Source: Rhodospirillales bacterium (GTDB taxonomy: Bacteria; Vulcanimicrobiota; Vulcanimicrobiia; Vulcanimicrobiales; Vulcanimicrobiaceae). From it: 44,288 bases of DNA. Position numbers and translations under genes: made by a program. Shown in pieces: positions 765 to 44,105 of the stretch. Every line of letters begins with the position of its first letter. The first letter of the stretch is position 1. The notes under the pieces are model-generated. The model was not told the DNA's origin. It saw nothing but the letters and a program-made list of their open reading frames with translations, and searched no databases. Location of the stretch: assembly GCA_025359485.1 (NCBI GenBank), contig JANYGA010000291.1, positions 1-44,288 of the forward strand, written 5' to 3'.

Positions 765-768
<4 letters not shown>
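1..768 (-). CDS. CheR-type methyltransferase-like protein; the C-terminal end runs off the left edge of the window
   Basis: This frame is absent from the supplied ORF track because it has no stop codon inside the window. My translation of the minus strand from 768 down to 1 is uninterrupted: [171 protein letters not shown].. It is collinear with CheR landmarks: the N-terminal 'Y.F..Y....L.RRI..R' helix region, 'T.FFR', 'R.WSAxxSTGEEPYS', 'I.ATDI', 'F..HNL' and 'FD.I.CRNVLIYF'. The GTG at 766-768 overlaps the TGA (765-767) of the upstream kinase as GTGA. Confidence 0.6.
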
Positions 769-6479
<5,711 letters not shown>

Positions 6480-12480: not shown

Positions 12481-13932
12481 ATGCGGCACCTTTCATCGAA
12501 TGATGCGCGGCCTTCGGCATATGTCGACACGTTCGCGTATGCCGCGCCGTCGACGGCCCAGCGGCGTCTCGCGACGTTCGCCGCGGGTTCGGTGCTCGGA
12601 GCGCTCGTTTGCGCCGTTCCTTTCGCAAGCATCGCTCTGCCAGTGGTGCCCGCGTTCTTACCGGTCATCAGCGCGATTGCCGTTTTCGGCGCGTTGCTGA
12701 CGGCGCTCATTCTCGGTTCGCAATATCGGGCAACGCAATACCCGCCGCTTGCGTTTTTGGCGCTCGCCTACGGTGCGCAATCCCTCATGGTCCTCGCGTA
12801 TCTCTTGGTTTTTCCCAATCTCATCCCGGGCGTGCATCTCCTAGGTTCGGGTGCGCAATCGGCAGCATGGCTATACCCCGCATGGCACTTCATGTTTTTC
12901 GCCTGTCTCGGAGCCTATGCCATCTCGAGTGCGAAGATGCGCTTTGACGATTCGCACGTCGCACGCAATCGCCGGATCGTCGCGCTTATCGGCGCTTCGA
13001 CGGCAGTCGCCGTCGCCGTGATTCTCTTCGCTTTGGTGCGTTGGAGCGACGCGCTTCCCATCATCGTCCTCGCGAGCGGGCAATTCACATTTTCCACGAC
13101 GCATTTCCTCGAACCGGCCCTGCTCTTCGTCAACGCCGGGCTTCTCATCGTCCTCGTTCGCGGGACGAAATTGCGCAAAGTCGTCGACATCTGGATCGCC
13201 GTCACACTCGTAGCCTTCTTTTGCGATATACTTCTGGCAGGCGTCCTCGGCGTCGGGCGCTTTACCGTGGGCTGGTATTCAGCGCGCTTCGAATGGTGCT
13301 TCGCGTCGATCGCCTTTCCGATCGCGCTCGTCACTCAGATGAGTAAGATCATCGCCGGCCTCTCGACAGCGAATCGCTCGCTCGAGGTCGTCTCCGATAC
13401 AGATTCGCTGACGTCACTGCACAATCGGCGCAGCTTCGACGCCCGCTTTCAGAAAGAGATTCTTCTCTCCACGCGTGAGGGAAAGCCGATCTCGCTCCTC
13501 ATCATCGACGTCGATGAATTCAAACTCTTTAACGACACGTTCGGCCACCCCGAAGGCGACACGGCGCTCAAAGCCGTCGCCGGCGTCTTCGGGCGCGCGA
13601 TCTCACCACCGCGCGATTTCGCAGCGCGCATCGGCGGTGAAGAATTTGCAATCGTTCTCCCCAACACGAGTATCGAGGGAGCGTTCACCTTCGCCGAATT
13701 CGTCCGCGAAAACGTCGCCGCGCTCGCAATCAAACAACATCCCGAATCTGTCGCTGGTCGCATGACGGTCAGCATCGGCGTCGCGTCATCGCAGGCGCCG
13801 GGCTCAGGAAAATACGCCGATCTGATGGCTCGTGCCGACAAGGCCCTCTACTCCGCCAAACGTGCGGGGCGTAATCGCACGCATTTGGCGGGCTCCGATC
13901 GTCCGCGAGCGCTCGAAGGAACCGCTTCATGA
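12481..13932 (+). CDS. Integral-membrane diguanylate cyclase, a tandem paralogue of 10942-12390
   Basis: It is collinear with the upstream gene over its full length. Shared strings are 'YAAPS.AQRR', 'GSQYRA.QYPPLAFLALAY', 'QSAAWLYPAWH', 'LSTANRSL', 'LLIIDVDEFK.FNDTFGHP.GD', 'RIGGEEFAIVLPN' and 'GRNRTHLA'. Confidence 0.9.
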   Translation: MRHLSSNDARPSAYVDTFAYAAPSTAQRRLATFAAGSVLGALVCAVPFASIALPVVPAFLPVISAIAVFGALLTALILGSQYRATQYPPLAFLALAYGAQSLMVLAYLLVFPNLIPGVHLLGSGAQSAAWLYPAWHFMFFACLGAYAISSAKMRFDDSHVARNRRIVALIGASTAVAVAVILFALVRWSDALPIIVLASGQFTFSTTHFLEPALLFVNAGLLIVLVRGTKLRKVVDIWIAVTLVAFFCDILLAGVLGVGRFTVGWYSARFEWCFASIAFPIALVTQMSKIIAGLSTANRSLEVVSDTDSLTSLHNRRSFDARFQKEILLSTREGKPISLLIIDVDEFKLFNDTFGHPEGDTALKAVAGVFGRAISPPRDFAARIGGEEFAIVLPNTSIEGAFTFAEFVRENVAALAIKQHPESVAGRMTVSIGVASSQAPGSGKYADLMARADKALYSAKRAGRNRTHLAGSDRPRALEGTAS

Positions 13933-15090: not shown

Positions 15091-16218
15091 CTACGGCCGT
15101 TCGCGCGCCCAACGGCGAATCGCCGTCTCGGTGACGCGCCGTTCGAGTGCATGTAATTCCGTTTCGAGCGCATCGCGGTCGCGATCGACGGCCAAGCGTA
15201 GCGGCGCACGCGCGTAGACCGAGCCACGGTCGACGGCGACGCCGACGCGATGCATCGTCGCCCCGCTCCATCCCAGACCCGCGGCGAGCGCCTCGTCGAA
15301 GGCGTGCGCGCCGCGAAATGCGGGGATGACGGTCCTATCGGGCATCGTGATCGTATCGAGGGCGAAATCATACGGCAGCATCGCGGGATGGATGTTGAGC
15401 GTTTCGGGAAAGCGCGCCAGAAAAATCGCGGGCAAGACGTGCATCCAGCCGAGCAACAGCACGAGATCGGGTGACGTCTGGGCAACCGCGGCGATCACGC
15501 GATCGTCGTATGCGTCGCGCGATTCGTTCGCGCGATCCCAGGCGATGCAGCGCGTCGCGATGCCCGCGGCGTGAGCGCGTTCGAGCGCGTAGGCTTGCGG
15601 CCGATTCGCGACGAGCGTCGTGATGTCGAGTGGGACGCAACCTGCGGTTGCGGCATCGAGCAAGCCTGCGAAATTGCTGCCGTTTCCCGACGCGAGGACC
15701 GTCGTCCGATAACGCCGTTCGGTGCGATCGTCGACGCTTTGGACGAAGCGTGCGTGCGCGTGGCGTTCGAGAAATCCGATCGCGTCCGCGCCGTCGACCG
15801 CGGGGACGAGCGCCTGGCGATAGCCACGCTCGCGCATCGAGAATGCAGCGGCATGCAAGAGCACGCGGCCGATGCCGCGACCGCGCGCCGCGGGCACGAC
15901 GCCGAGCGGACCGACGATCCCGACACCGTCGCGCGCCATCCAAAAGCGGAGGTCGTCGTAGGCAAGTCCGCGTGCGTCGAAGGCCGCAAAGCCGACGAGT
16001 TCGCCCGCTTCGTGCGCGAGCCAAATGCCGCCCGCGGCCGCTTCATACGACGCCGTTCCCCCGAAGCGATCGTCGATCCATGAAAGGACCGTCTCGGGCG
16101 TGCGATGATCGCGACCACAGTAGATGCCGCGCTCGCGATCGAGCGCCTCGATCTCGTGGTGGACGTCGTCTTGAGCGAAGAGGGTGTCGTCGAGATCGAT
16201 CAGCAGATGGCTACGCAT
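15091..16218 (-). CDS. purN: GNAT acetyltransferase-like domain fused to phosphoribosylglycinamide formyltransferase (PurN)
   Basis: The N-terminal ~170 aa carry GNAT motif A 'GPLGVVPAARGRGIGRVLLHAAAFSMRERGY'. The C-terminal ~200 aa are PurN: 'TTVLASGNGSNFAGLLDA', 'DLVLLLGWMHVLP', 'NIHPAMLP' (catalytic N/H) and 'ATMHRVGVAVDRGSV' (Asp). An extra ~15-aa segment 'YDFALDTITMPDRTVIPA' sits between 'HPxxLP' and 'F.G'. The start is 7 nt after the purM stop. Confidence 0.85.
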   Translation of the reverse strand: MRSHLLIDLDDTLFAQDDVHHEIEALDRERGIYCGRDHRTPETVLSWIDDRFGGTASYEAAAGGIWLAHEAGELVGFAAFDARGLAYDDLRFWMARDGVGIVGPLGVVPAARGRGIGRVLLHAAAFSMRERGYRQALVPAVDGADAIGFLERHAHARFVQSVDDRTERRYRTTVLASGNGSNFAGLLDAATAGCVPLDITTLVANRPQAYALERAHAAGIATRCIAWDRANESRDAYDDRVIAAVAQTSPDLVLLLGWMHVLPAIFLARFPETLNIHPAMLPYDFALDTITMPDRTVIPAFRGAHAFDEALAAGLGWSGATMHRVGVAVDRGSVYARAPLRLAVDRDRDALETELHALERRVTETAIRRWARERP

Positions 16219-16225
16219 CCGCGCG

Positions 16226-17317
16226 TTAGGTGCGCGCGGGGTGCACGACCACGGGTGGATCTCCTGCGACGCGTTCTTCCACCCAGCCGATCACGCGCGC
16301 GCCCTGCCACGCCGCCGCCGCTGCCGCGGCTTGCGCGCGCGCAACGATGAGCGTGTAGCCGATGCCCATGTTGAGCGTGCGGTATTTTTCGGCATGTTCG
16401 AGCTTGCCGCGACGCACGAGTTCGGCGATGAGCGGCGGCACGCTCCAGCGCGAAGCTTCGAAGACGGCCTTACACGACGGCGGCAACGTCCGCGGCACGT
16501 TTTCCAGCAGACCGCCGCCCGTGATATGCGCCATCGATTTAATGTCGGCGACGGCTTCGATCGCATGCACCGCCGGTGCGTACGACGGATGCTCGACCAG
16601 GAGTGCGTCGAGCCACGTAACGCCGGGTTCTGCGCCGGGAAGCTGGGCGCGCCACTGGTCGACCGGCACGATCGCGCGCGCGAGCGAGTAGCCGTTGGTA
16701 TGAAGTCCGATCGAGGGAATGCCCACGATCGCATCGCCCGCTTCCACGCGCGCGGGATCGGGCACACGCGCGCGATCGACCATACCGACGATCGTACCCG
16801 CGAGATCGAAGTGACCTTCCTGATAGAGGCCCGGCATCTCCGCGGTTTCCCCGCCTAGAAGTGCGCAGTCATTCACGCGGCAGGCGCGTTGCACGCCCGC
16901 AACGATCTCGGCCGCGACGTCAGGATCGAGCTTGCCGACCGCGAGATAATCTAAAAAGAAGAGCGGCTTTGCGTTGACGACGAGAATGTCGTTGACGCAG
17001 TGGTTAACGAGATCCGCACCGACGCTGCCGTAGCGTTTGGCTTCGGCTGCGATGAGGATCTTCGTCCCAACACCGTCGGCCGACCCGACGAGCGCGCGCG
17101 TCGAATCGCCCGGCATTTCGAAGAGACCACTAAATCCGCCTATGGCGCCGAGCTGGCTCGGATGGCGCCATTGTGACGTCACATCTTTATAACGCGCGAC
17201 CGCGGCATTGCCGGCAGCGATATCGACTCCGGCTCGCGCGTATGCATCGGGGAGGGGCGCGTCGCTCGATGCTCGCAATTCGTCCGGATTCCGCATTCTC
17301 GCAATCCATTCCACCAA
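16226..17317 (-). CDS. purM: Phosphoribosylformylglycinamidine cyclo-ligase (AIR synthetase, PurM)
   Basis: Motifs are 'YARAGVDIAAGNAAV', 'GSADGVGTKILIA', 'VNHCVNDILV' and 'HITGGGLLEN'. The start may be the internal ATG at 17296 (MRNPDEL..). Confidence 0.95.
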   Translation of the reverse strand: MVEWIARMRNPDELRASSDAPLPDAYARAGVDIAAGNAAVARYKDVTSQWRHPSQLGAIGGFSGLFEMPGDSTRALVGSADGVGTKILIAAEAKRYGSVGADLVNHCVNDILVVNAKPLFFLDYLAVGKLDPDVAAEIVAGVQRACRVNDCALLGGETAEMPGLYQEGHFDLAGTIVGMVDRARVPDPARVEAGDAIVGIPSIGLHTNGYSLARAIVPVDQWRAQLPGAEPGVTWLDALLVEHPSYAPAVHAIEAVADIKSMAHITGGGLLENVPRTLPPSCKAVFEASRWSVPPLIAELVRRGKLEHAEKYRTLNMGIGYTLIVARAQAAAAAAAWQGARVIGWVEERVAGDPPVVVHPART

Positions 17318-30126: not shown

Positions 30127-31557
30127 TTATCGCGCGGCGGTCGCGAGAACGGCCGGCCCGTTGTAGGTTTCGGGATATTCACCCGTGAGGCAGCCCATGC
30201 ACATCTGACCGCGTTTGCGTGCGATCGCATCGAGCAATCCCTCTTTACTTAAGTACCCGAGCGAATCGGCACCGATCTTCTCACGGATCTCGTCGATCGT
30301 GAAGTTCGCCGCGATCAGTTCGTCGTGTGAGGCCATGTCGACGCCGAGATAACACGGATGGATGATCGGCGGTGACGTGATACGCACGTGCACTTCGCGC
30401 GCGCCCGCGTCGCGTAAGAGTTTCACGATGCGCGGCGTCGTCGTCCCGCGCACGATCGAATCGTCGACGACGACCACACGTTGGCCCGCGAGTAGCTCCA
30501 CGATCGGATTGAACTTGAGTTGCACGCCACGCGCGCGCATTTTTTGATCGGGACTGATGAACGTCCGGCCGATATAACGGTTCTTAATCAATCCTTCGAC
30601 GTACGGCAAACCCGCCTCTTGCGCGTAGCCGATGCCGCCGGGGATCGCACTATCGGGGATCGCCATCACGACGTCGGCATCGACGGGATGCTCGCGCGCG
30701 AGTTGGCGACCCATCGCCATCCGTGCCATGTAGATCGATTTGCCGCTGAGCACCGAATCGGGCCGCGCGAAATAGATGTACTCGAACATGCATAGCGCCT
30801 GCGGCTTGTGGTGCGCCATCTTGTCGTAATGGAGGCCGTCGTTATCGACCCACATGATCTCGCCCGCATCGAGTTCGCGAATGTACTGCGCGCCCACGGT
30901 CGCAAGCGCGCACGACTCCGATGCGAACATGTAGCCGCCACCGGGAAAGCGCCCGTAGCAGAGCGGTCGAACGCCCCAAGGATCGCGGAATGCGTAGAGC
31001 GATTTCTCCGTCGACATCACGATCGAATACGCGCCTTCGGCTCGACCCATCACGTGCCGGATTCGCGCGATCATGTCGGCGCCCGGCGCCTGCACGATCG
31101 CCTTCGCGAGCACTTCGGAATCCGACGTCGCCTGCAACACCGTCGCCGCATCGAGCGTCGAGCGCAGGTCGCCCGTATTGGTGAGATTACCGTTGTGGGA
31201 GACGGTCACGTCGCCGAAATCGGCGTGTTCGAGCAGGGGCTGCGCGTTGACGACCACCGACGACCCCGTCGTGGAATAGCGCGTATGGCCTACCGCAATG
31301 TAGCCCGTCAGGTTTCCGAGTATCTCCTCATCGAAGATACTCGAGATGAGCCCCATCTCGCGATGACAGACGATCGTCGCGCCGTCCGAGACCGCGATGC
31401 CCGCCGATTCTTGGCCGCGATGCTGCAAGGCATAGAGGCCAAAATACGCGTGGCGCGCGACTTCATTTCCGGGTGCGTAGATGCCGACGACCCCGCAAGC
31501 TTCGTGGAGCGTGTCGCCGGCCGGCATCGGCGCCTCGGCATCGTACGACCTAGCCAT
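30127..31557 (-). CDS. purF: Amidophosphoribosyltransferase PurF (Fe-S, propeptide-bearing type)
   Basis: The catalytic Cys context 'HEACGVVGIYA' follows a ~20-aa leader, and the PRPP loop is 'VVVVDDSIVRGTT'. Cys residues align with the B. subtilis 4Fe-4S ligands: 'ALCMFEYIYFARPDS', 'HPCYLGVDM' and 'CMGCLTGEYP'. Confidence 0.95.
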   Translation of the reverse strand: MARSYDAEAPMPAGDTLHEACGVVGIYAPGNEVARHAYFGLYALQHRGQESAGIAVSDGATIVCHREMGLISSIFDEEILGNLTGYIAVGHTRYSTTGSSVVVNAQPLLEHADFGDVTVSHNGNLTNTGDLRSTLDAATVLQATSDSEVLAKAIVQAPGADMIARIRHVMGRAEGAYSIVMSTEKSLYAFRDPWGVRPLCYGRFPGGGYMFASESCALATVGAQYIRELDAGEIMWVDNDGLHYDKMAHHKPQALCMFEYIYFARPDSVLSGKSIYMARMAMGRQLAREHPVDADVVMAIPDSAIPGGIGYAQEAGLPYVEGLIKNRYIGRTFISPDQKMRARGVQLKFNPIVELLAGQRVVVVDDSIVRGTTTPRIVKLLRDAGAREVHVRITSPPIIHPCYLGVDMASHDELIAANFTIDEIREKIGADSLGYLSKEGLLDAIARKRGQMCMGCLTGEYPETYNGPAVLATAAR

Positions 31558-31586: not shown

Positions 31587-32243
31587 TCAGTCATCTCGGC
31601 TGCGCCCGCCGAATATGGAAAGTAACGCCAAGAAAATGTTGATCGCATCGAGATAGATCGACGTCGCGAGTTCGATCGCGTTCTGGCCACCGCCACCCGC
31701 GCGCACGCGACCGAAATCGACGAGGACGAGCAACGTGAAGACGGCGAGCGTGGCCCACGCGTAGAGGCCGGGATGCAAGAAGTGCGTGAATGCCGAGATC
31801 AAGCCGACGATGAGAAGCCCGATGAGCGCGCCGAACGCGATGCCCGAGAGCTTGCGATAATCGAAGCTGGTAAGGAACACGACCGCACCGAGCACGAGCA
31901 TGCCGAGACCGGTCGTTGCCGCCGCTTGAACGACGACGCCCGAGCCGTCGACGCGAATATAGTGCCCGATCGTCGGCCCGATACCGATGCCCTCGCAAGC
32001 GGTAAAGGCGTAAAACATCAGCATCGAGAGGCCGGGATTGCGGCGCGTCGCCGAAATGCCGATGAGAAACCCGAAACCGACGAGCATCGCGATGAGCGAG
32101 AAACCCGCGGGAAAGCCCTGCGTGAGGTAACTCGTGACCGCGGTGACGAGAAAACCCGCACCGGTGATCCCGAGGACCTGACCGAGCAACGACGCCGAGG
32201 AGACGGTCGGCGCGTCGAATCGCGACTGCTGTTGTCCGTACAT
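31587..32243 (-). CDS. Bax inhibitor-1 / YccA family integral membrane protein
   Basis: The protein is 218 aa with about 7 TM segments, and its layout is typical of the BI-1/YccA family ('LLGQVLGITGAGFLVTAV', 'YAFTACEGIGIGP', C-terminal charged tail 'GGRSRDD'). Confidence 0.85.
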   Translation of the reverse strand: MYGQQQSRFDAPTVSSASLLGQVLGITGAGFLVTAVTSYLTQGFPAGFSLIAMLVGFGFLIGISATRRNPGLSMLMFYAFTACEGIGIGPTIGHYIRVDGSGVVVQAAATTGLGMLVLGAVVFLTSFDYRKLSGIAFGALIGLLIVGLISAFTHFLHPGLYAWATLAVFTLLVLVDFGRVRAGGGGQNAIELATSIYLDAINIFLALLSIFGGRSRDD

Positions 32244-32303: not shown

Positions 32304-33578
32304 TTACGGTGCGAGTTTGGCGATATCGCTGCGGTAGCTCAAGCGCACGCCGTTGCCGATGCGATGCGCGAGTTCGTCGACGGCCGCATACGCATTCGCA
32401 CGCGCGGCTGCGACGTCGTCGCCGAGCGCACTCACCGTGAGCACGCGCCCGCCGCCCGCATCGACGACCCCGTCGCGCAGCGCCGATGCGCCCCAGAACG
32501 CGACGCGATCGCCCGAGAGCGCGACGTCGGCACTGAGATCGCGAAGCGGCGTGCTGCTGCGCGGATAGTCGGCCGTCGCGAGCACGACGCCGACACACGC
32601 GCCGCCATCGAAGCGCGCGGCATCTTCATCGATCGCGCCGTCGGCAGCCGTTTTGAGTAAGCGCGCGAAATCGCCACGCACGCGCGGCATGAGCACTTGC
32701 GTTTCCGGATCGCCGAATCGCACGTTGAATTCGATGACGTATGGCCCGGTTGCCGTAAGCATCAAGCCGCAATACAGCACGCCGATATACTTTTCGCGAT
32801 CGAGCGCGAGACCGCTCACCACTTTCTCGAGCACGCGCGTGCGAACGACGTCGACGAGATCGTCGGGAAACCCGGCGGGCGGCGAATAGGCGCCCATACC
32901 ACCGGTGTTGGGCCCCGTGTCGCCGTCGCCCGCGCGCTTGTAGTCGCACGCCGATCCGATCGGTACGAACCGTTTGCCGTCGCCAATGGCGAAGATGCTG
33001 ATCTCGCGGCCTTCGAGTCGCTCTTCGAGCAACACGTCGCTTCCGCCACCGGGCACGCCCGCGCCGCCGTACCATTCGCGCAAGACCGAAAGCGCACTCT
33101 GCGCGTCGGGCGTCACGACGACGCCTTTGCCGGCCGCAAGCCCGTCGGCTTTGACGACGCATTCGCCGCGCCACTCCGCAAGCGTTTTCACCGCCGTCGC
33201 GAGTGAATGGACGACGCGCGCTTTGGCCGTCGGAATGCCGTGGCGTTCCATAAAACGTTTCGAATAGATCTTACTCGATTCGAGCCGACCGACCGCGCGA
33301 CCGGGGCCGAACGTCGAAATTTTCGCCTCGCGCAAGCGATCGCCGACACCCGCTGCGATGGCGGTCTCGGGGCCGAGCACGACGAGATCGATCTTCTCCG
33401 CAACCGCGCGCGCGACGAGCGCCTTCCCGTCGGTTGCGTTGATCGGCCAATTCTCGCCGCGCGTCGCGGTGCCCGCGTTTCCGGGTGCCGCGAAGATCGC
33501 ATCGCACGACGGCGATTGCGCGAGACGCCACGAGAGTGCGTCTTCGCGCGCACCGTTACCGACGACGAGGATGCGCAT
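32304..33578 (-). CDS. purD: Phosphoribosylamine-glycine ligase PurD
   Basis: I chose the ATG at 33578 (MRILVVGNGAREDALSWRLAQS). The ORF-track start at 33833 would overlap guaA. ATP-grasp strings include 'VVKADGLAAGKGV' and 'EFNVRFGDPETQ'. Confidence 0.95.
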   Translation of the reverse strand: MRILVVGNGAREDALSWRLAQSPSCDAIFAAPGNAGTATRGENWPINATDGKALVARAVAEKIDLVVLGPETAIAAGVGDRLREAKISTFGPGRAVGRLESSKIYSKRFMERHGIPTAKARVVHSLATAVKTLAEWRGECVVKADGLAAGKGVVVTPDAQSALSVLREWYGGAGVPGGGSDVLLEERLEGREISIFAIGDGKRFVPIGSACDYKRAGDGDTGPNTGGMGAYSPPAGFPDDLVDVVRTRVLEKVVSGLALDREKYIGVLYCGLMLTATGPYVIEFNVRFGDPETQVLMPRVRGDFARLLKTAADGAIDEDAARFDGGACVGVVLATADYPRSSTPLRDLSADVALSGDRVAFWGASALRDGVVDAGGGRVLTVSALGDDVAAARANAYAAVDELAHRIGNGVRLSYRSDIAKLAP

Positions 33579-35286: not shown

Positions 35287-35751
35287 ATGGATAGCGACGA
35301 TCGGCCCGCCGTTTCGGTACCGCCGCCCCTGATCTTCGGCGTGGCACTCGGCATCGGGCTCGCCCTCGGTCGCACACCAAAAGACGCGAGCCCGCGCAGC
35401 CGGATCGTCCGCGCGCTCGGTACGGCCTCGGTCCTCGCGGGAGCCGCACTCGGCATCGCCACGCTCGCGACCCTGCGCGCGGCCGGCACGACGGCGAATC
35501 CATACGGTCGTGCGAGCGCGCTCGTCACGCACGGACCCTTCGTCTGGACGCGCAATCCCGCGTACGTCGGCGCGACCTCGATCTTCGTCGGAGTCGCGAT
35601 GCGCGAGGGCTCGCTTCCCGCGCTCGTGATGTTACCGATCGCGCTCGCACTCGTCGATCACCACGTGGTCGACGCCGAGGAACGCTATCTCGCGCGCACG
35701 TTTGGCGAAACGTACGACGACTACGCGCGCAAAACGCCGCGTTGGTTTTAG
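35287..35751 (+). CDS. Isoprenylcysteine carboxyl methyltransferase (ICMT/PEMT-like) family membrane protein
   Basis: It has several TM segments and the family core 'LVTHGPFVWTRNPAYVGA..' with a C-terminal 'EERYLARTFGETYDDYARKTPRW'. Confidence 0.75.
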   Translation: MDSDDRPAVSVPPPLIFGVALGIGLALGRTPKDASPRSRIVRALGTASVLAGAALGIATLATLRAAGTTANPYGRASALVTHGPFVWTRNPAYVGATSIFVGVAMREGSLPALVMLPIALALVDHHVVDAEERYLARTFGETYDDYARKTPRWF

Positions 35752-35974: not shown

Positions 35975-37111
35975 CTAGGTGAGAACGTCGGCCAGTCGAT
36001 CCGCATCGCGTGCCATCACGACTTCCATCGCGATCCGCTCGCCGACGGAGACGTCGCGACCCCAAAGGTAGGCGCTATACGGCGTATAGCGCGTGCCGGG
36101 CGAACCCGGAATGCGCAGCGAGACATCGTACACGACGAACGCTTTGGGCGGCCCGGCTACGATGATGCATTGCAGCGCAAAGGGTCCGATGACACCGGGC
36201 GCATTGGCTTCGCGCGCCGCGACGACGAAACGTTCGCCGATTTCGAAGGCTTTTTCGAGCATCGATTCGGTCAGCGTCGTTGCGATATGCCCAGCTTCTT
36301 CCATTCGAACCGGAATCGAAGCTGCAGCCGCGAGCTGGGACGGTGGTAAACTTTTGAGGCCGTCGAGGTTGGTCTGGCGTCGCGTGTCGGTCCCCAAGAG
36401 TTCGAGTTCGCCGAGCATCGGTGAGTAGAAAAAATTGAGGTTGACGCTCGGCCCGAGCGCATATTCCTCGATGCGCGCGGCGGCGAGCCCCGCAGGCGTC
36501 ACCATTCCGGCTGCGATCATCTTCTGGGCCTGCGCTTCGTAATTCGCGGGGGAATCGCAGAGGAAAAACGCGCGCTCGAAGGTCACGGTCGCGTGCGCGG
36601 CTTTCACCATCACCAAGCGATCGATTTCCGACGGTGATGCGAACGTGCGCGGATAGCGAATGCCCGCGCGTTCGAGGAGATCGTATTGATTTGCGGGTTC
36701 GTCCCGCTCTTCGGCACGCAACAACCTACGGTTCCCAAAGAACGGAATCTGCATTCGGCGCTCGATCTCGTCGTAGGAAAACTTTTCGTGGAGATAGACT
36801 TCGAACGAGCGATTGGCGACGAAGATCGCGTTTGCGTCGAGCAGCTTCGCCTGCACGTCGTCGTCGAGGAGCTTCGCGAACGTTTCGAGATGGAGCGTAG
36901 CATCGACGCACCCGCGCGCGGGCGCTTCGCGTCGTGCGTAATAGGTCGCGTACGTGCGCTCCCGACCGTCGGCCGTCACGATGAGATTGCGCAAGCCTCG
37001 GGCGCGCGCGCCGAAGGCGACGTCGAGCGCGGAATGGCTCCCGACCGAACACAGCGCGAGCGCGGCGCGATCGTAGCGCGCGAGCGCCGCGGCAACGCGA
37101 GGATCCGACAT
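35975..37111 (-). CDS. PurP-family ATP-grasp protein (diverged paralogue of 5-formaminoimidazole-4-carboxamide ribonucleotide synthetase)
   Basis: I chose the ATG at 37111 (MSDPRVAAALARYDRAALALCSVGSHSALDVAFGARARGL). It overlaps the upstream stop as TAATG. It is collinear with the PurP at 38240-39304: 'GSHSAL', 'IPFFGNRRLL', 'EEYALGPSVNLNFFYSP..GELELLGTD.R.QTN' and 'PFALQCII'. Confidence 0.8.
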   Translation of the reverse strand: MSDPRVAAALARYDRAALALCSVGSHSALDVAFGARARGLRNLIVTADGRERTYATYYARREAPARGCVDATLHLETFAKLLDDDVQAKLLDANAIFVANRSFEVYLHEKFSYDEIERRMQIPFFGNRRLLRAEERDEPANQYDLLERAGIRYPRTFASPSEIDRLVMVKAAHATVTFERAFFLCDSPANYEAQAQKMIAAGMVTPAGLAAARIEEYALGPSVNLNFFYSPMLGELELLGTDTRRQTNLDGLKSLPPSQLAAAASIPVRMEEAGHIATTLTESMLEKAFEIGERFVVAAREANAPGVIGPFALQCIIVAGPPKAFVVYDVSLRIPGSPGTRYTPYSAYLWGRDVSVGERIAMEVVMARDADRLADVLT

Positions 37112-38271
37112 TACGACGACGCGAGTTCTTGCGCTTGACGCGAGTTTGCGTATTGCACGAGAAGCGTCGTCTTCAACCGGCCCGCAGCGTCTTTCGTCTT
37201 CTCGGTTTCGACACGCTGCAGCAGACGAAACGCATCGAGCAACGTACCCGGCAACGTATAATCGTGCGGATATTGTTTCTGCCAATCGGCGATGGCGTTC
37301 TCGACCTGCAACGCATCGCTCTCCATCCGATAGCCCCAGCCCTTGTCGAGATATTTATTGATCCGCACGACTTCGTTGCGTACGCCGATCGGCGAAAATT
37401 TGAGGTTGCCGAAATATTCGTCGGCGGGCGCGGTGCGCGTAAGTTTGAGTTCGTGCGGGATCGCGCTCGTTCGACCGATGACTTTGAGATCGGGCGTGTG
37501 CTCGCGCCGATATTCGATCGCGCGCGCCGCCGTCCGGTCGTTGTCGGTAAAGCCGGGATCCGTGAGCGCACTTGCGGCGGTGGCGAACATCTCGCCGTAT
37601 TCTGGATCGGGCACGCGCGTGAGCGGGGTCGCGGGGTCGGCCGCATGTTGGAGCAACGAACTGCGGTACGCGAGATCGTGCGTGAGATTGTATCCTCGCA
37701 CGTCGGCCGTGATGAGTTGTACGAGGGCATCGCCGTCGTGATGGAACGCGTCGGCGTTGGCCTGCGCGTCGGTCTGGGCTTGCGAGGCCAACAGTTTTGG
37801 GTCGTCGCCGAGCGTATTCAGTCGCGCCGCGAGGGACTTCGCCTCGGCTCGATGTTGGGGGTCGCCGTTTTTGCCGACGTACGAGGCCGCCTCCAACACG
37901 TACCACAGCGCCGCGTCGTTGTTCGTGAGGGGATCGTAGTGGAGTTGCGTCGCGACGTCGACGGCGAGGCTCGCGACTTCGCCGTAATTCGGGTCGGTCG
38001 GTCGAAAGAGCGAGTAGGCCCGTCCGGCATCGAAGATCGTCGAGAGGTAGTAGAGCTCGTTTGCAAATGGCCAGTTTTTCGAGGCGCCGGTGTCGTAGGC
38101 CCGACGCATCGTTTGGTACAGCGCTTGAGGATCGGTCTCGATCGCCGCGCGAACCGGCACCATACTCGACACCGAAGAGGCCACGATGAATCCAAGCGCG
38201 GCGACGCCACGCACGACGCGCGTGCGAATCTGCGAAGCGCTACGCAATGCCGGAATCATCGAGCACCGCAT
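37111..38271 (-). CDS. Orphan hypothetical protein with a Sec-type signal peptide, encoded between the two purP genes
   Basis: Its amino-acid composition is natural, whereas the + strand ORF 37129-38301 is an R/G/V-rich shadow. The N-terminus is 'RTRVVRGVAALGFIVASSVSSMVPVRAAIETD'. The mature part has no Cys and I recognise no motif. The start is ambiguous: ATG at 38271 or 38259, or GTG near 38217. The first two overlap the purP 3' end. Confidence 0.6.
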   Translation of the reverse strand: MRCSMIPALRSASQIRTRVVRGVAALGFIVASSVSSMVPVRAAIETDPQALYQTMRRAYDTGASKNWPFANELYYLSTIFDAGRAYSLFRPTDPNYGEVASLAVDVATQLHYDPLTNNDAALWYVLEAASYVGKNGDPQHRAEAKSLAARLNTLGDDPKLLASQAQTDAQANADAFHHDGDALVQLITADVRGYNLTHDLAYRSSLLQHAADPATPLTRVPDPEYGEMFATAASALTDPGFTDNDRTAARAIEYRREHTPDLKVIGRTSAIPHELKLTRTAPADEYFGNLKFSPIGVRNEVVRINKYLDKGWGYRMESDALQVENAIADWQKQYPHDYTLPGTLLDAFRLLQRVETEKTKDAAGRLKTTLLVQYANSRQAQELASS

Positions 38272-39304
38272 GGAGATTGTTCGAGAGTAACGCGTTTTTA
38301 ATCTCGCGTGCGATGCGACGGCCCGTCGACATCGGCTCGCTGTAGTTGAGATACGAATACGGCGATCCATCGATAAATGGATTGGTGCCCGCGACGATGC
38401 GCGCCGAGATCTCCATCACGAAGAACTTCGCTTCGGGAGTGATGATCGTCTCGATGCAGAACGCTCCGAAAAGCCCTTTCTCGCCGCAGATCTCCTGGCT
38501 CACGCGCACCACGTCTTCGCCCATGCGATAGGCTTCGGCGAGCATGGATTCGCGCAAGACCAGCGGCGAGTTGCCGACCACGACGTAGCTCGGATCGATA
38601 TCCATGTGCTCTTGCGCGGCGGCCGGAATGCGACCGAGCGAATCGACGTTGGTTTCGTAACGACGATCCATACTCATGATTTCGAGCTTGCCAGTAAGCG
38701 GCGAATAGAAGTAGTGAATGTAGGCGGGCACGCCGATGATATACTCCTGAAGCATATACTGCTGCGTCAGGTGGCTTCCGCGCGCTTCGAAGTCTTGGGC
38801 GTCGCGAACGAAGAGATAGCCCTTGCCGCCCTGCGCGCCGTACATCTTCACGATGACGGGTCGATCGATTTCGGCTGCGGTGATGAATTGTTGCGGCAAC
38901 GTGAGGTTCGCGCGCGTGAGCCAGTCGCGTTGCTTCTCGCGGCTCGCTTCCCAATCGAGCACGGCCTTATTGCCGAAATACGGTATCTTCATCTTCTTGT
39001 GTTCGTCGAGTGAGAGATACGCGACGAACGAGCCGTGTGGCACGATGATCATCTTGCGCTTCTCGAGCTCGGGCACGAGGTCCATGAACTGCCCGTAGTG
39101 GTCGATGCCGATCACTTCATCGACGAACGCGTACGATCGGTAGAGCCGTTCGGTATCGCGATTGGCGATCGCGAGCGTGCGAAAGCCTTCATCGTGCGCG
39201 CCTTTGAGAATTTGGAGCGCGGAATGCGAGCCGAGCGTCGCGATCGTGTAGAAGTCGCTGGACTTAGCTTGGGCTCCGGTGCGGAGCAGTTCGGGTGCGA
39301 TCAT
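38240..39304 (-). CDS. purP: 5-formaminoimidazole-4-carboxamide-1-beta-D-ribofuranosyl 5'-monophosphate synthetase PurP (archaeal-type, formate- and ATP-dependent)
   Basis: 'YTIATLGSHSALQILKGAHDEGFRTLAI', 'IPYFGNKAVL', 'LQEYIIGVPAYIHYFYSPLTGKLEIMSMDRRYETNVD' and 'GAFCIETII' match the PurP (DUF1246 + DUF1297 ATP-grasp) family. The start overlaps the purS stop as ATGA. Confidence 0.9.
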   Translation of the reverse strand: MIAPELLRTGAQAKSSDFYTIATLGSHSALQILKGAHDEGFRTLAIANRDTERLYRSYAFVDEVIGIDHYGQFMDLVPELEKRKMIIVPHGSFVAYLSLDEHKKMKIPYFGNKAVLDWEASREKQRDWLTRANLTLPQQFITAAEIDRPVIVKMYGAQGGKGYLFVRDAQDFEARGSHLTQQYMLQEYIIGVPAYIHYFYSPLTGKLEIMSMDRRYETNVDSLGRIPAAAQEHMDIDPSYVVVGNSPLVLRESMLAEAYRMGEDVVRVSQEICGEKGLFGAFCIETIITPEAKFFVMEISARIVAGTNPFIDGSPYSYLNYSEPMSTGRRIAREIKNALLSNNLHAVLDDSGIA

Positions 39305-39750
39305 GCAACAGACGCTTTCTGGAACGCGGGATTACAAAGTAGGGTCTCGGTCGCAGCGGCGACCAGATCGACATTGGCGCGCACGCCAGGCGCGCCGTAG
39401 ATGCGCCAGGCGGTAAAACGCTCGAAGGCGCGGACGCCCGGGAGCACGCGGCCGCCCACACGGATGTCGGATGCCGTTTTGGGGCTCGCGAGATCGCCCA
39501 CCCATACTTCACCCGCATCGGGCGTCGCGAGCGCACGGACGCGCATGATGTGTTTGTTGGGATTGAAGAGCGTCTCGGTCGCGCGGACGCGTGTGACGAG
39601 ATCGTTCGCTTCTTCATCTTGCACATCGAAACGGTAGAGATCGGCACGTTCGAGCATCGCGACGCCGACGCCGAGGCGTTGCAAAGTGGCGAGCGCCGTA
39701 CGCGCCTCGTTATCGGGAATGATGAGCGCGACGTCGATGCAGCGAATCAT
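39301..39750 (-). CDS. purS: Internally duplicated PurS (FGAM synthase PurS subunit, two PurS-like halves in one chain)
   Basis: The protein is 149 aa, against about 80 aa for ordinary PurS. Half 1 reads 'VALIIPDNEARTALATLQRLGVGV..RADLYRFDV..TLFNPNKH'. Half 2 reads '..FERFTAWRIYGAPG..LVAAATETLLCNPAFQ'. Both halves end in the PurS-type 'L(L/F).NP' tail. The gene is linked to purQ and purP by ATGA overlaps. Confidence 0.7.
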   Translation of the reverse strand: MIRCIDVALIIPDNEARTALATLQRLGVGVAMLERADLYRFDVQDEEANDLVTRVRATETLFNPNKHIMRVRALATPDAGEVWVGDLASPKTASDIRVGGRVLPGVRAFERFTAWRIYGAPGVRANVDLVAAATETLLCNPAFQKASVA

Positions 39751-40532
39751 CGCAACGCCTTCGCGAGCCCGACGAAGAACGCGATTCCGCCCGACGGTGC
39801 GAGCATCGCGGCCGTATTACGGCGGGCCGCATCGCGCGAGGCGTCGACATGCATGTACGTCCACGCGTCGCGTTCGGGATGCGGCATGATCGCGAGCACG
39901 TTGCCGCGATCGTTGACGAGCGCCGCCGCGCCGAGTGCCGATCCGTTGGGAACATCGGCGTCACTCACGTTGCCGTCACGATCGCAGTAGACGAATGCCA
40001 CGCGTTCGTCGCGTGCGATCGCTTCGAGCACGAGCGGTTGTGCCGCGAGACGACCCTCGCCGTGCGATGCCCACGCCGGGATCACGATTCCCGGCGCCAT
40101 CTCGCGCGTGATCGCGCAGCGCTCGGGTGGAATCGCGAGCTTGACGTGCACGTGCGTCGAACGAAAACGACCGCCGTTTGCGTTCCGTGCGAAGCCCGCT
40201 TGCGCGCGTGCGTGGCCGTCGAGTGCGGGTGCGAGCCCGCTCTCGAGCAAGATCTGCGCGCCGTTGCAGATTCCGAGCACGAACTTGCCCGCCGCGGCGC
40301 CTTCGCGAACCGCGACCATCAGTCGAGCGTGCGCGGCGATCGCACCCGCGCGGACGCGATCTTCGTATGCGAATCCGCCGGGCAGCACGTACGCATCGAA
40401 CGCGCGGACCGCATCGAGATCGGCATTCCAATGCACGAGTTCGGTGTCGAGCCCGACCGCGCGACAGGCGCGAATCGTCTCGTCTTCGGAATTAGTCCCG
40501 GGGAAGGCGAGAACGCCGACGCGCGCGCTCAC
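39747..40532 (-). CDS. purQ: FGAM synthase glutaminase subunit PurQ
   Basis: Motifs are 'VGVLAFPGTNSEDE', 'LPGGFAYEDR', the nucleophile 'GICNGAQIL' and 'IMPHPER'. Confidence 0.95.
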   Translation of the reverse strand: MSARVGVLAFPGTNSEDETIRACRAVGLDTELVHWNADLDAVRAFDAYVLPGGFAYEDRVRAGAIAAHARLMVAVREGAAAGKFVLGICNGAQILLESGLAPALDGHARAQAGFARNANGGRFRSTHVHVKLAIPPERCAITREMAPGIVIPAWASHGEGRLAAQPLVLEAIARDERVAFVYCDRDGNVSDADVPNGSALGAAALVNDRGNVLAIMPHPERDAWTYMHVDASRDAARRNTAAMLAPSGGIAFFVGLAKALR

Positions 40533-42913
40533 GCGGAAATCTCACGAACGGCGACATCGTCGTAAAACGAACGCAACGGTGCGGACCATATTTCGCGCAG
40601 ATGCGCGACCTCCATCGTGTGACCGAACGCCGCGAGCGACGCCTCGCTCGTTACCGTACCGATGCGCGGCCGATGCGTCGGCTCGACACCACACGTTCGT
40701 GCGAGCGCCTCGAATGCGACTGCGTCGGTGACCTCGACGACGAAGCCGCCACACTCACCGAAGAGCGCCTCCGTGTTCCCGACCATACCGAACGTAAAAT
40801 CCGATGGTGCCGTCGTGAACCGCACGCCCAGTCGTGCGCGCGCGGCAAAGGCCATCTCGGCGACCGTCACGAGCATGCCACCATCGGAAACGTCGTGCGC
40901 GGCGACGACGTACCCCGCGCGGTTGGCCGCGTCGAGCAACGCGAGTTCCGCGCGTAACGCCGCGTAATCGACGCGCGCGACGCGCCGATCGTCGAGTGCG
41001 AACGCATCGGCAAACGCACTCGCGCCCAGAGCATCGCTAAAATTGCCCAGATAATAGAGCGCGTGGTCGGCGCCTTTGAGACCGGGCGTCAGCGCGAAGG
41101 CCACATCGTCGAGCGTGCCCACGCACGCGACGATCGGCGACGCCGGAATCGATCTGCCGTTGGCTGCCGTGTTGTAAAGACTCACGTTCCCCGAGACGTA
41201 CGGCACCGCGAGTTCGCGTGCGGCATGCGCGAGACCGGCGATCGCCACGACGAGTTCGCCCATCTGCTCTGGCACTTCGGGGTTGCCGAAGTTGAGACAA
41301 TCGGTCATCGCCGCGGGCTTAGCACCGACCGCCGCGACGTTGCGAATCGATTCGACGACGGCGTTCTCCGCCGCGAGCCGCGCGTCGATCCCGCCGAGCC
41401 GCGGATTGCCGCCCAGACCGAGCGCGCAACCCAGCGGCGCACCGGGCACGGGCACGATGAGGCCCGCATCGCCGTAGCCCGCGGGAATCGCCGTCGTGCC
41501 GCGCACGACGGAATCGAAGCGTTCGTAAATCGGCGCGCGCGAGCAGACGTCGAGATGCGCGAGGATGCGTTCGAGCGTCTGCGGCAACGCGGCGAAATAC
41601 GCGTCGTCGACGCGAGCCGCGGGCTCCGCAATTCCGGGCATCGGCGCGTCTTGCGCGACCGACACCGGGGCCGTCGCACGATCGTAACGGATGCCGTCGG
41701 TGAAGAAATCGAGATCGACATCCATCACGGTCGCACCGCGATGATGCAAGACGTAACGTCGTTCCTTCGTAACCGTACCGATGACCGCCGCACGCGCGCC
41801 ACGCGCGATTTGCGGCAACGAAAACTCTTCGTTGTAGATCGCTAGGAGCGTGGGCGTGAACTCCGGCGGCACGACCCACGTGAGGCGTTCTTGCGTTTCG
41901 CCGACCGCTATGACGGCGGGTGGAAGATGCTCTTGCGACGTCGGGCATTTATCGAGATCGACGATCGCACCGAAGCCGCCGCTCGCGCAAATCTCCGCGG
42001 TACAGCCCATGATGCCGCCGGCGCCGAGATCTTTAAAGCCCACGGTAAAGCCGCGTTCTTTAAGCACGTCGAAGACGCGATACGACGCGCGCATGATGAC
42101 GTTTTTGAGAAACGGATCGGGCACTTGCACCGCGCCCTTGTTCAGTTCGGCATCGTCTTCATCGAGAACCAGCGACGAAAAGGCCGCGCCGCCGAAACCA
42201 CTGCGATCCGTCGCCTTACCGACGAGGACGATATCCCACCCTTCGGCATTCGCGGGTGCTTTCGAATGGATGACATCGGTCGCTTCGAGGATGCCGAGTG
42301 CGACCACGTTGACCAAACAATTATCGCGAAAGCCTTCGTGAAAGAAGACGTCGCCCGCGATATTCGGCACGCCGATCGCGTTGCCGTACGCCGAAATTCC
42401 GTCGACGACGCCCTGCGCCACGTAGCGGCAATGCGGATCGTCGAGCGGCCCGAAACGCAGCGGATCGGCGACGGCGATCACGCGCGCGCCCATACAGAGC
42501 ACGTCGCGGACGATGCCGCCGATGCCGGTCGCCGCGCCTTCGAAGGGCACGACCTGCGATGGGTGATTGTGCGATTCGTGTGCGAAGACGATGCCGTACG
42601 TCTTGCCCTCGAAGTCGCCGAGCCGCACGATGCCCGCATCTTCTTGCGGGCCTTGCAAGACGGTCGGCCCGTCGGTCGGTAAACCGCGGAGATGATGACG
42701 CGAGCTCTTGTACGAGCAATGCTCGCTCCACTGGGCGTCGAAAGCGTGCGCTTCGACAACCGAGGGATCGCGACCGAGCGTCGCCGCGATCGTGCGGATC
42801 TCCAATTGCTTGAGTGCTAAACCTTGGTGGCGCAGCGTGCCTTCGAGCGTCGCATCGTCGACGCCGAGCACGCGGACGATCTCGACGGTCGGCGCGACGG
42901 GCGCGCCCGACAC
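40529..42913 (-). CDS. purL: FGAM synthase subunit PurL (small PurL type)
   Basis: Motifs are 'FDAQWSEHCSYKSS', 'AHESHNHPSQV' and 'DLGAGGI'. I chose the GTG at 42913 (VSGAPVAPTVEIV..), 4 nt after the purC stop. The ORF-track start at 43177 lies inside purC. Confidence 0.95.
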   Translation of the reverse strand: MSGAPVAPTVEIVRVLGVDDATLEGTLRHQGLALKQLEIRTIAATLGRDPSVVEAHAFDAQWSEHCSYKSSRHHLRGLPTDGPTVLQGPQEDAGIVRLGDFEGKTYGIVFAHESHNHPSQVVPFEGAATGIGGIVRDVLCMGARVIAVADPLRFGPLDDPHCRYVAQGVVDGISAYGNAIGVPNIAGDVFFHEGFRDNCLVNVVALGILEATDVIHSKAPANAEGWDIVLVGKATDRSGFGGAAFSSLVLDEDDAELNKGAVQVPDPFLKNVIMRASYRVFDVLKERGFTVGFKDLGAGGIMGCTAEICASGGFGAIVDLDKCPTSQEHLPPAVIAVGETQERLTWVVPPEFTPTLLAIYNEEFSLPQIARGARAAVIGTVTKERRYVLHHRGATVMDVDLDFFTDGIRYDRATAPVSVAQDAPMPGIAEPAARVDDAYFAALPQTLERILAHLDVCSRAPIYERFDSVVRGTTAIPAGYGDAGLIVPVPGAPLGCALGLGGNPRLGGIDARLAAENAVVESIRNVAAVGAKPAAMTDCLNFGNPEVPEQMGELVVAIAGLAHAARELAVPYVSGNVSLYNTAANGRSIPASPIVACVGTLDDVAFALTPGLKGADHALYYLGNFSDALGASAFADAFALDDRRVARVDYAALRAELALLDAANRAGYVVAAHDVSDGGMLVTVAEMAFAARARLGVRFTTAPSDFTFGMVGNTEALFGECGGFVVEVTDAVAFEALARTCGVEPTHRPRIGTVTSEASLAAFGHTMEVAHLREIWSAPLRSFYDDVAVREISA

Positions 42914-42917
42914 CGCG

Positions 42918-44105
42918 TCAGGCAAGGCCGACCGGTGGCCCGGGAGCGTTGATCTGCGCGTCCGCACCGAGCACCGCGGAGCGCGCGTTCGCCTGCACGA
43001 GCAGCACGCGGCCGAACATGACCGTGTCGTCCATCGCGAGCGTCTTCGCAACCACGAGTGCGAGTTCGCTCGCATCGAACTCGGTCGCATCGAACACCGG
43101 CGTCGGCGTCGCGGCCGATAGCATCGCCGCGAGGTGCGGACCCGATGCGACGTAGACGAGTCGCGCGAAGGTCGCATCGAGTTGCTGCACGGCCTGCAAG
43201 ACGTACGCTGGCACGAGATGCGTCGAAACCACGCGACGCAAACTCTGCAAGCCGAACACGTTCGTCTGCGCGATCACGGGATCGAGCAACGCGACGCTCT
43301 GCGCGCCGTCGGCGACGTAGGCGACCATGCCCGACCGCAGCGCCGGAAACGAGCCGACGAGATCGGCGACCGTTTCGTAATTCGCGTGCACGCGCGCAAG
43401 GTCGTCCGGCGTTACCGTTTCGAGATCGCGATACATCTGCTTGTCGAGCATGAGCTCTTCGCGGCCTTGGGGCCATACACGCCACGAATCGTTGTCGATG
43501 ACGTCGGCGATGACGAGATTGCCGCGTCCTTCGCCGCCCGAGAGGCGACCGAATTCGATTTTGAGATCGACGAGGAGCGTCTCGCGGCTACGCCACGCAT
43601 GTGCGAGAATTTCGAAGGTGATGCGCGCGATCTCGCTCATCATGCCGAGCTCTTGCGGCGTCGCGAGCCCGCGATGCACGATGTCGTCGATCTCGATGAG
43701 CGGATCGTGATTGGCGTCGTCTTTGAGGAAAAACTCGACCATGCGCGGGACGAGGATCGCGCCTTTGGCGATGCCGGGCTTGCGTTTGACGAGCGAGCCC
43801 GCGGCGACGCCGCGTACGACGACTTCGATCGGAATCATGTTCGCGCGACGCACGAGCATTTCGTTATCGTCGTCGTCTTCGCCGCCGGAAAGATAGTGCG
43901 TCGGCAACCCGCACAAATTTAATAACCGAAAGACTCGCGCCGTCGTCTTCGCGGCGATGCGGCCCTTACCCGGAAGCTCGTCGCGCCGCGCGCCGTCTCC
44001 CGCCGTGATATTGTCGAGTGCGGTCACGACGAGCGTGTCGGGTTCGCCCGGCTTCTCGTAGAGCACTTTGGTCTTGCCGCGCGCGACTTCGAGACCCTTA
44101 TTCAC
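42918..44105 (-). CDS. purC: SAICAR synthetase (PurC) with a C-terminal ~150-aa degenerate PurE-like (AIR carboxylase fold) domain
   Basis: The N-terminal ~245 aa are PurC ('ARGKTKVLYE', 'LDNITAGDG', 'IPIEVVVRG..AGS', 'LVDLKIEFG'). The C-terminal domain aligns by eye with PurE. 'MVAYVADGAQSV' corresponds to 'VAIVMGSKSDW'. 'RRVVSTHLVP' corresponds to 'VEVVSAHRTP'. 'LVYVASGPHLAAMLSAATPTPVF' corresponds to 'VIIAGAGGAAHLPGMIAAKTLVPVL'. The GTG start at 44105 overlaps the upstream stop. Confidence 0.85.
   Translation of the reverse strand: MNKGLEVARGKTKVLYEKPGEPDTLVVTALDNITAGDGARRDELPGKGRIAAKTTARVFRLLNLCGLPTHYLSGGEDDDDNEMLVRRANMIPIEVVVRGVAAGSLVKRKPGIAKGAILVPRMVEFFLKDDANHDPLIEIDDIVHRGLATPQELGMMSEIARITFEILAHAWRSRETLLVDLKIEFGRLSGGEGRGNLVIADVIDNDSWRVWPQGREELMLDKQMYRDLETVTPDDLARVHANYETVADLVGSFPALRSGMVAYVADGAQSVALLDPVIAQTNVFGLQSLRRVVSTHLVPAYVLQAVQQLDATFARLVYVASGPHLAAMLSAATPTPVFDATEFDASELALVVAKTLAMDDTVMFGRVLLVQANARSAVLGADAQINAPGPPVGLA

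Follow-up and report, generated by a model that had tools for sequence, protein, structure and literature searches.

An archaeal-type PurP pair in the purine operon of Eremiobacterota and the putative exported protein encoded between its genes

Many archaea possess two purP-like genes, one belonging to cluster Ib (group II) and the other to cluster II (group III) of the PurP family (PMC3261824, PMC6486802). The two groups co-occur constantly in archaea (61 taxa), and their genes are often adjacent and linked to purine genes (PMC6486802). Cluster II proteins are recognised by a histidine in place of Asn258 and by a 161-165 loop with two extra residues and no glycines (PMC3261824). Neither PF1517 (group II) nor PF0421 (group III) showed 5-aminoimidazole-4-carboxamide ribonucleotide (AICAR) formyltransferase activity in vitro (PMC3261824), and the archaea in which the group II and III pair occurs alone have no known inosine monophosphate (IMP) cyclohydrolase (PMC3261824, PMC6486802). 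In a 2019 survey (Cruz et al.), purP was found in 0 of 1,266 bacterial genomes (PMC6486802). Here we describe a pair of this kind in a bacterial contig (JANYGA010000291.1, positions 1 to 44,288; this whole stretch of 44,288 nucleotides is hereafter called the window). The window carries, within a purine operon, the genes purP1 and purP2, which are separated by a gene encoding a protein designated X. The reading that we favour, to which we give a probability of roughly 0.6, is that the proteins encoded by purP1 and purP2 correspond, in bacteria, to the archaeal group II and III pair and formylate AICAR, and that X is an envelope passenger standing outside purine catalysis.

With regard to PurP1 (354 amino acids), both domains of the PurP architecture were found (DUF1246, PF06849, E 2.5e-40, and DUF1297, PF06973, E 1.6e-65). 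The closest solved relative is PF1517 from P. furiosus (PDB code 2r84), with 48% identity and an E value of 5e-97, and the identity to MJ0136 from M. jannaschii is 42%. In a HMMER alignment to the MJ0136 structure (2r7k), PurP1 keeps His27, Ser94, Asn258, Ser266, and Arg314 (M. jannaschii numbering). Its P-loop reads AQGGKG, compared with (K/R)GG(K/R)G, which means that GGKG is intact and that the first basic residue is gone. The motifs GAxGGKGY and VVGN are kept in 50 of the 54 PurP1 orthologues. On these features, PurP1 is classified as PF1517-like, that is, as a member of archaeal cluster Ib/group II.

PurP2 (378 amino acids) exhibits the same architecture (DUF1246, E 1.7e-32; DUF1297, E 1.7e-54) and is 30-32% identical to PurP1, PF1517, and MJ0136 (30% to PurP1 and 32% to MJ0136). 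The residues aligned with FPGAR--GGRGYF of MJ0136 read AAHATVTFERAFF in PurP2, or VKAAHATVTFERAFF when the slightly longer stretch VKFPGAR--GGRGYF is taken, and form a loop that is two residues longer and devoid of glycine. At the position corresponding to Asn258, PurP2 exhibits a histidine (EEAGH), and His27, Ser94, Ser266, and Arg314 are retained. Both cluster II signatures, the His258 and the long loop without glycine, are present in 78 of the 82 PurP2 orthologues. By the published residue diagnostics (PMC3261824), PurP2 is thus of the archaeal cluster II/group III type, a group of which no member has a solved structure. As the signatures of PurP1 and PurP2 match the archaeal ones throughout the phylum, the two proteins correspond to the archaeal group II and III pair and do not represent a new divergence. 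The initial annotation of the window, made from the DNA alone, had recognised two archaeal-type PurP homologues in a bacterial purine operon, which the domain matches and the operon gene order bear out. It had also regarded purP2 as a diverged paralogue: it is indeed a real second PurP, only 30% identical to the first, but its divergence is the one already described in archaea.

The pair is not restricted to the window. The window proteins were mapped by tblastn onto 80 species-representative loci, and purP1 and purP2 were found on one locus in 54 species representatives, which constitute the informative set used below. A pattern scan with one genome per species yielded at least 554 species-level genomes with a PurP2 relative. 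Of these relatives, the best 80 all come from Eremiobacterota, except for a few records titled with other taxa, and the source-named homologues of X and PurP2 belong to Vulcanimicrobiaceae, Candidatus Eremiobacteraeota, or Baltobacteraceae. The window, although deposited under Rhodospirillales, is a contig of the soil phylum Eremiobacterota (Vulcanimicrobiota), of Vulcanimicrobiaceae-like origin. The records with other titles (L007, L011, L031, L044, L052, L055, and L071) are named Rhodospirillales, Janthinobacterium, Acidoferrum/Acidiferrales, Verrucomicrobiia, or Binatia; as they carry the Eremiobacterota operon, they are probably mis-binned contigs or mislabelled metagenome-assembled genomes. 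NCBI and the Joint Genome Institute (JGI) already annotate these genes as PurP-family, and our search for literature on PurP in Eremiobacterota returned nothing. What stands firm is that the archaeal PurP II/III pair occurs throughout a bacterial phylum, an occurrence that is annotated in databases and apparently undiscussed in the literature.

Based on these assignments, the pair would supply the formate- and ATP-dependent formylation of AICAR to formyl-AICAR (FAICAR). PurP1, with its intact GGKG P-loop and its Asn258, would be the nucleotide-binding ATP-grasp catalytic partner, whereas PurP2, in which the nucleotide loop is changed and residue 258 is His, would act as its obligate partner and possibly aid ring closure to IMP, as has been speculated for archaea. 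The residues of FAICAR synthetase (EC 6.3.4.23) that contact the formyl group (His27 and Arg314) and the phosphate (Ser94 and Ser266) are present in both proteins.

We also looked for the conventional enzymes of these steps. The open reading frames taken as real genes were scanned against Pfam or carried precomputed Pfam calls, part of which had been made for the contig L001, identical to the window; between positions 1 and 30000, the open reading frames listed are those of at least 200 amino acids. In these scans purH and purO are absent from the window, in agreement with the initial annotation. Neither the window, X included, nor the gene calls of L001-L005 gave a match to PF07826, PF02142, or PF01808, and a tblastn search with E. 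coli PurH returned only matches with E values of 0.33 or more in the window and in 91 sequences (1.49 Mb) extending up to 10 kb around the cluster. In the six text supplementary files of the paper on Vulcanimicrobium alpinus, purH, purP, purN, and folD are not mentioned.

A folate enzyme, on the other hand, is probably encoded in the window. The gene adjoining purM encodes an N-terminal GNAT acetyltransferase domain fused to a PurN-like part, which has an insertion of about 35 residues after the NIHP motif. This PurN-like part scores 126 bits with TIGR00639 (cut-off 150), matches Pfam Formyl_trans_N with an E value of 5e-29, and keeps both the N-I-H-P motif and the catalytic Asp, which makes the protein a candidate folate-dependent glycinamide ribonucleotide (GAR) formyltransferase. 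As the motif and the Asp are kept, folate-dependent formyl transfer is probably available to the organism. This argues against a folate-free lineage, and the use of PurP is not explained by a lack of folate.

An alternative that we consider unlikely is that the two PurPs are ATP-grasp ligases acting on another substrate, purine-related or not, and that a conventional PurH encoded elsewhere catalyses steps 9 and 10. The failure of PF1517 and PF0421 to act as AICAR formyltransferases would be accounted for in this way, as would the presence of PurH in addition to the PurP pair in Methanosarcinales; the scores of both proteins, which are lower than the NCBIfam equivalog cut-offs for formate--phosphoribosylaminoimidazolecarboxamide ligase (377 bits against 580 for PurP1 and 233 bits against 556 for PurP2), and the formyl-folate chemistry indicated by the PurN-like gene are also consistent with it. 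Against this alternative stand the four formyl and phosphate contacts kept in both proteins and the Asn258 of PurP1, which corresponds to the residue contacting the AICAR carboxamide. Moreover, all species examined have the pair within the purine operon, and the 91 sequences hold no purH within 10 kb of the cluster.

Going further than AICAR formylation, the Eremiobacterota might be devoid of any PurH, PurV, PurJ, and PurO, the PurP II and III pair, probably as a heteromer, carrying out both AICAR formylation and IMP ring closure, having been acquired from archaea while the folate-dependent PurN was kept. We regard this extended proposal as tentative. If it is true, the cultivable mesophilic diderm Vulcanimicrobium would give direct access to two questions open since 2008-2011 for Crenarchaeota and Thermococci, namely the role of the PurPs outside group I and the location of the missing IMP cyclohydrolase.

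The protein encoded between the two PurPs is of a different nature. X comprises 382 amino acids (386 if translation starts at 38271) without a single cysteine, and no Pfam or NCBIfam match was obtained for it even at E values up to 10, nor any PDB sequence match in a profile search. The initial description of a Cys-free protein of about 385 amino acids with a Sec-like signal and no recognisable motif therefore holds. A total of 384 homologues were found at 58-87% identity, all named hypothetical and none with a Pfam domain, and the identity falls to about 40% in more distant families. Together with a confident AlphaFold2 model, these homologues indicate that X is a real gene, and X is a conserved Eremiobacterota-specific protein. 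Its invariant motifs are TAPADEYFG, SP.G..NE, and DWQ.QYP.D. The model is all-alpha, with 17 helices and a predicted local distance difference test (pLDDT) score of 79, residues 1-42 being of low pLDDT; as a full-length structure, it has no Foldseek match in the PDB below an E value of 0.01, and the template modelling (TM) scores are about 0.2.

The N-terminus of X was judged by inspection and exhibits all the features of a substrate of Sec and signal peptidase I (SPase I). The n-region contains R6, R12, R14, and R17, the h-region VAALGFIVASSV reaches a Kyte-Doolittle peak of 2.0 at residues 19-31, and it is followed by V-R-A/A, where the slash marks the cleavage site. Cleavage is predicted after Ala38 (V-R-A/A-I-E-T-D-P). 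In an alignment of 24 homologues, the N-terminus varies in sequence and is always signal-peptide-like; the cleavage region P-A-R-A/AIETDP is kept in 22 of them, the other two being short gene calls that start downstream. X is therefore predicted to be exported via Sec. An outer membrane is present in V. alpinus, the cultured representative of the phylum (PMC9758169), and X is accordingly expected to be periplasmic or secreted; it would be exported to the periplasm and cleaved after Ala38. Two other identities were considered for X and rejected. A lipoprotein is ruled out by the lack of cysteine. The missing IMP cyclohydrolase is not a suitable identity either, given the signal peptide, the all-alpha model resembling tetratricopeptide repeats (TPR), the lack of similarity to PurO and PurH, and the absence of X beside some PurP pairs.

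Most of the wider relationships of X concern its C-terminal domain, which exhibits the invariant pattern APADEYFG...S..G..N...W...YP.D. An exhaustive profile search returned few full-length ortholog clusters and more than 100 clusters (at 50% identity) of short secreted proteins that have only the C-terminal ~105 residues in common with X. In a second search, 226 clusters (at 90% identity) with this domain were found, corresponding to secreted proteins of 130-460 amino acids. The named clusters come from Eremiobacterota, including Tyrphobacter (Vulcanimicrobiaceae), with one exception titled Candidatus Acidoferrales. Short paralogues with the domain occur in non-purine contexts, one with AhpC/thioredoxin-like and MsrA genes and another with a nitrilase-family gene. 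The model of the domain (pLDDT 89) is a TPR-like arrangement of helical hairpins, for which Foldseek returned YbgF, BamD, and PilW beside designed helical proteins, with TM scores of 0.42-0.48 and non-significant E values of 0.16-1.1; no Pfam TPR match was obtained for X at E values up to 10. The profile, structure, and signal-peptide analyses thus characterise X as a protein with a predicted signal peptide and with no significant sequence or fold relative outside its own family. In the envelope, X would most likely be a TPR-like helical binding or scaffold protein.

The relationship between X and the PurPs was assessed from the junction between purP1 and purP2. In the window, the ATG of X (38259) lies 20 nt within purP1, whose stop codon TAG is at 38240-38242, and the stop codon of X and the start codon of purP2 share TAATG (37109-37113). 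Likewise, the stop codon of the 149-residue gene in the purS position and the start codon of purP1 share ATGA (39301-39304). The ATGA and TAATG fusions, already reported in the initial annotation, were read directly in the raw sequence. No internal promoter or terminator separating X from the purPs was found above the level of shuffled sequences. As X lies directly 3' of purP1 and its ends overlap purP1 and purP2, it is probably co-transcribed and translationally coupled with them, and its expression would be tied to the operon via the purP1 overlap.

Among the 54 informative species, the order purP1-X-purP2 is observed in 29 and the order purP1-X-cydA-cydB-purP2 in 19, the genes of the latter running in one direction with gaps of about 20 nt or less. 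In one species (L029:8046-9986), a 646-residue multicopper oxidase is encoded between X and purP2. In the five remaining species, both purPs are kept and X is missing from the locus: purP1 abuts purP2 in three (L008, a 2.5-Mb contig; L009, a 3.0-Mb chromosome; and L032), X is replaced by a secreted M61-type peptidase with an HEFNH motif and a signal peptide in one (L071:7980-10004), and the junction holds 3 kb of other, mostly opposite-strand membrane-protein genes in one (L015). X thus follows purP1 in 49 of the 54 species and, where present, always lies directly 3' of purP1, whereas the X/purP2 junction is variable. At least nine further species have purP2, sometimes after cydAB, without purP1 or X within 4-10 kb upstream. 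In a neighbour-joining tree based on PurP2, GuaA, and PurD, the lineages without X are scattered among those with X. This scatter suggests that X was inserted long ago and has since been lost or replaced several times independently, the purPs staying about 80% conserved.

The loci with cydAB deserve separate mention. In at least 20 of the 80 species, cydAB separates X from purP2 (for example L054:7661-9981; also L016, L025, L026, L031, L037, L038, L042, L046, L055, L056, L060, L061, L065, L068, L073, L075, L080, and L082). In L018 and L040, cydAB precedes purP2, but the 10 kb upstream encode neither purP1 nor X.

The initial annotation had proposed that the paralogue and the exported protein form an undescribed accessory module, an idea that depends on the middle gene being kept in relatives with both purP genes. 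The neighbourhood is conserved insofar as X follows purP1 in nearly all informative species; in five scattered lineages, however, X is missing or replaced, which in part fulfils the refutation that the initial annotation had set out for itself. Given this variation of the junction, the difference in compartment between X and the PurPs, and the non-purine contexts of the X-domain paralogues, the module is not supported, and the most fitting view of X is that of a co-transcribed passenger long resident at what would be an insertion-tolerant junction.

A link of X to cytochrome bd oxidase or to redox homeostasis in the periplasm, for instance in assembly or protection, with X in the operon only through an inserted X-cydAB cassette, appears improbable to us. 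It draws on the tightly spaced, co-directional X-cydA-cydB arrangement, on the multicopper oxidase that follows X in L029, and on the short paralogue that precedes the AhpC/thioredoxin-like and MsrA genes. However, X has no adjoining cydAB in 29 species representatives, the window lineage included (34 loci with the window's own contigs), the L018 and L040 loci have cydAB-purP2 without X in the 10 kb upstream, and where the operon is split, X stays with purP1 and cydAB with purP2. The least likely explanation is that X genuinely assists the PurP pair, for instance by supplying or sensing a substrate such as formate at the envelope or by coupling purine synthesis to envelope growth, and that the trio forms one functional module. 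The overlaps of X with both its neighbours in the window and its high conservation directly 3' of purP1 are set against the signal peptide that X has and the PurPs lack, the five lineages keeping both purPs at about 80% identity with no X at the locus, the unrelated envelope genes at the same junction, the X-domain paralogues in non-purine contexts, and the lack of any enzyme-like or ligand-binding fold match.

Several observations weigh against the favoured reading of an AICAR-formylating pair with X as a passenger. The archaeal proteins PF1517 and PF0421 were inactive in vitro, which leaves the activity assigned to the pair hypothetical in every organism, and both PurPs score far below the NCBIfam equivalog cut-offs. 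The search for purH covers 1.49 Mb of cluster loci, and the absence of X likewise refers to the loci. In addition, X is as conserved as the enzymes (39-87% identity across the phylum, compared with 55-69% for PurC, PurL, and PurQ), and it lies within 0-80 nt of purP1 in 49 of the 54 species (91%), which is unusually stable for a passenger gene.

The features of the locus are given in Table 1. In the open reading frame list of the window, the genes of the region all map to the minus strand. The order purB-purC-purL-purQ-[149 aa]-purP1-X-purP2...guaA-purD-Bax1-I-purF follows from the gene calls made for identical and related contigs; the order of the upstream operon genes is kept across the 80 species representatives, and the order purP2-guaA-purD-Bax-purF is likewise conserved in their loci.

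Table 1 Features of the purine locus and of the purM region in the window
Feature	Position	Strand	Basis
purC with PurE-like C-terminal extension	42918-44105	-	Pfam
purL	40529-42913	-	Pfam
purQ	39747-40532	-	Pfam
purS-position gene, 149 aa, overlaps purP1	39301-39750	-	position and repeats seen by eye
purP1	38240-39304	-	Pfam DUF1246 and DUF1297
X, 382 aa	37111-38259	-	open reading frame, homologues, and AlphaFold2 model
Predicted Sec (SPase I) signal peptide of X, residues 1-38	38146-38259	-	inspection
C-terminal domain of X, residues 262-382	37114-37476	-	profile search and domain model
purP2	35975-37111	-	Pfam DUF1246 and DUF1297
guaA	33587-35161	-	Pfam (contig L001)
purD	32304-33578	-	Pfam (contig L001)
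Bax1-I membrane protein	31587-32243	-	Pfam (contig L001)
purF	30127-31557	-	Pfam (contig L001)
purM	16226-17317	-	TIGR00878, 313 bits, above cut-off
GNAT-PurN fusion	15091-16218	-	TIGR00639 and Pfam Formyl_trans_N

The 149-residue gene is found between purQ and purP1 in nearly all loci, and its product is 38-54% identical across the phylum. It has no significant Pfam, NCBIfam, or PDB match, the best being PRK05783 with an E value of 0.02. Two PurS-like repeats can be seen by eye (LFNPNKH and LLCNPAFQ), and these repeats, along with the gene position, suggest that it is probably a diverged tandem PurS. The C-terminal ~160 residues of PurC (42918-43400) are conserved and exhibit a weak, degenerate likeness to PurE (TIGR01162, E 3e-5), with VSTHLVP at the position of the SAHRTP motif of PurE; neither purE nor purK was found in the cluster. 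The cultured relative V. alpinus needs high CO2 (PMC9758169), and it may be speculated that this need relates to the carboxylation of aminoimidazole ribonucleotide (AIR).

The Bax1-I (BI-1/YccA-like) gene lies between purD and purF in most species examined and is thus a non-purine gene fixed in the array. A PEMT/ICMT-family methyltransferase gene (35287-35751, plus strand) is present between purP2 and guaA in the window lineage, and a multicopper-oxidase/Zip fusion occupies the purP2/guaA junction in L004, which shows that this junction varies too. The genes upstream of purB were considered as enzyme candidates and discarded, one being holA and the others probably encoding lipoproteins (LAGC lipobox by eye). 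Further away, the window encodes a hybrid sensor kinase of 1904 amino acids (765-6479) with nine serial HAMP domains followed by GAF, HisKA, HATPase, and three receiver domains, and two tandem paralogous MASE4-GGDEF diguanylate cyclases (10942-12390 and 12481-13932).

PurP has been treated as an archaeal signature, and the conserved II and III pair in a whole bacterial phylum extends its distribution. The two proteins, inactive in vitro in their archaeal forms, are available from the Eremiobacterota in mesophilic bacterial form, and the same phylum bears on the IMP cyclohydrolase sought in organisms that have only this pair. Should complete genomes turn out to be without purH, purO, and purJ, the pair would gain in interest, since its function could then be tested in a bacterium. 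The locus also calls for caution in annotation by guilt of association, since the overlapping operon genes include X, cydAB, a multicopper oxidase, and an M61 peptidase, which are most likely unrelated to the pathway.

Compared with known systems, the best native fold matches to the C-terminal domain of X, although weak, are the TPR domain of YbgF/CpoB (2xev), BamD (3qky), PilW (2vq2), and YfgM (8zht). These are helical-hairpin domains of the Gram-negative envelope, and X is likewise predicted to be exported; unlike them, X has no TPR Pfam match; it has no sequence motif in common with them, and its APADEYFG and W...YP.D motifs are without counterpart there. With MJ0136, the PurP and FAICAR synthetase of M. 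jannaschii (EC 6.3.4.23, PDB code 2r7k), PurP1 and PurP2 have in common the fold, the domain architecture, and the residues contacting formyl and phosphate. However, MJ0136 belongs to group I, occurs as a single copy, and acts together with PurO, whereas here two putative enzymes of the other groups occur with no purO nearby. A further close system is the archaeal pair of cluster Ib/group II and cluster II/group III (for example PF1517 and PF0421 of P. furiosus; adjacent pairs are found in Sulfolobales, Pyrobaculum, and Korarchaeum). In both cases, two deep DUF1246 and DUF1297 paralogues, about 30% identical, co-occur close together, with links to purine genes (purB and guaA among them), one copy exhibiting GG(K/R)G and Asn258 and the other a longer loop without glycine and His258. 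In contrast to the archaeal pair, the pair described here has a bacterial host whose genome also encodes a PurN-like folate enzyme, and it is usually split by the gene of a secreted protein and often also by cydAB.

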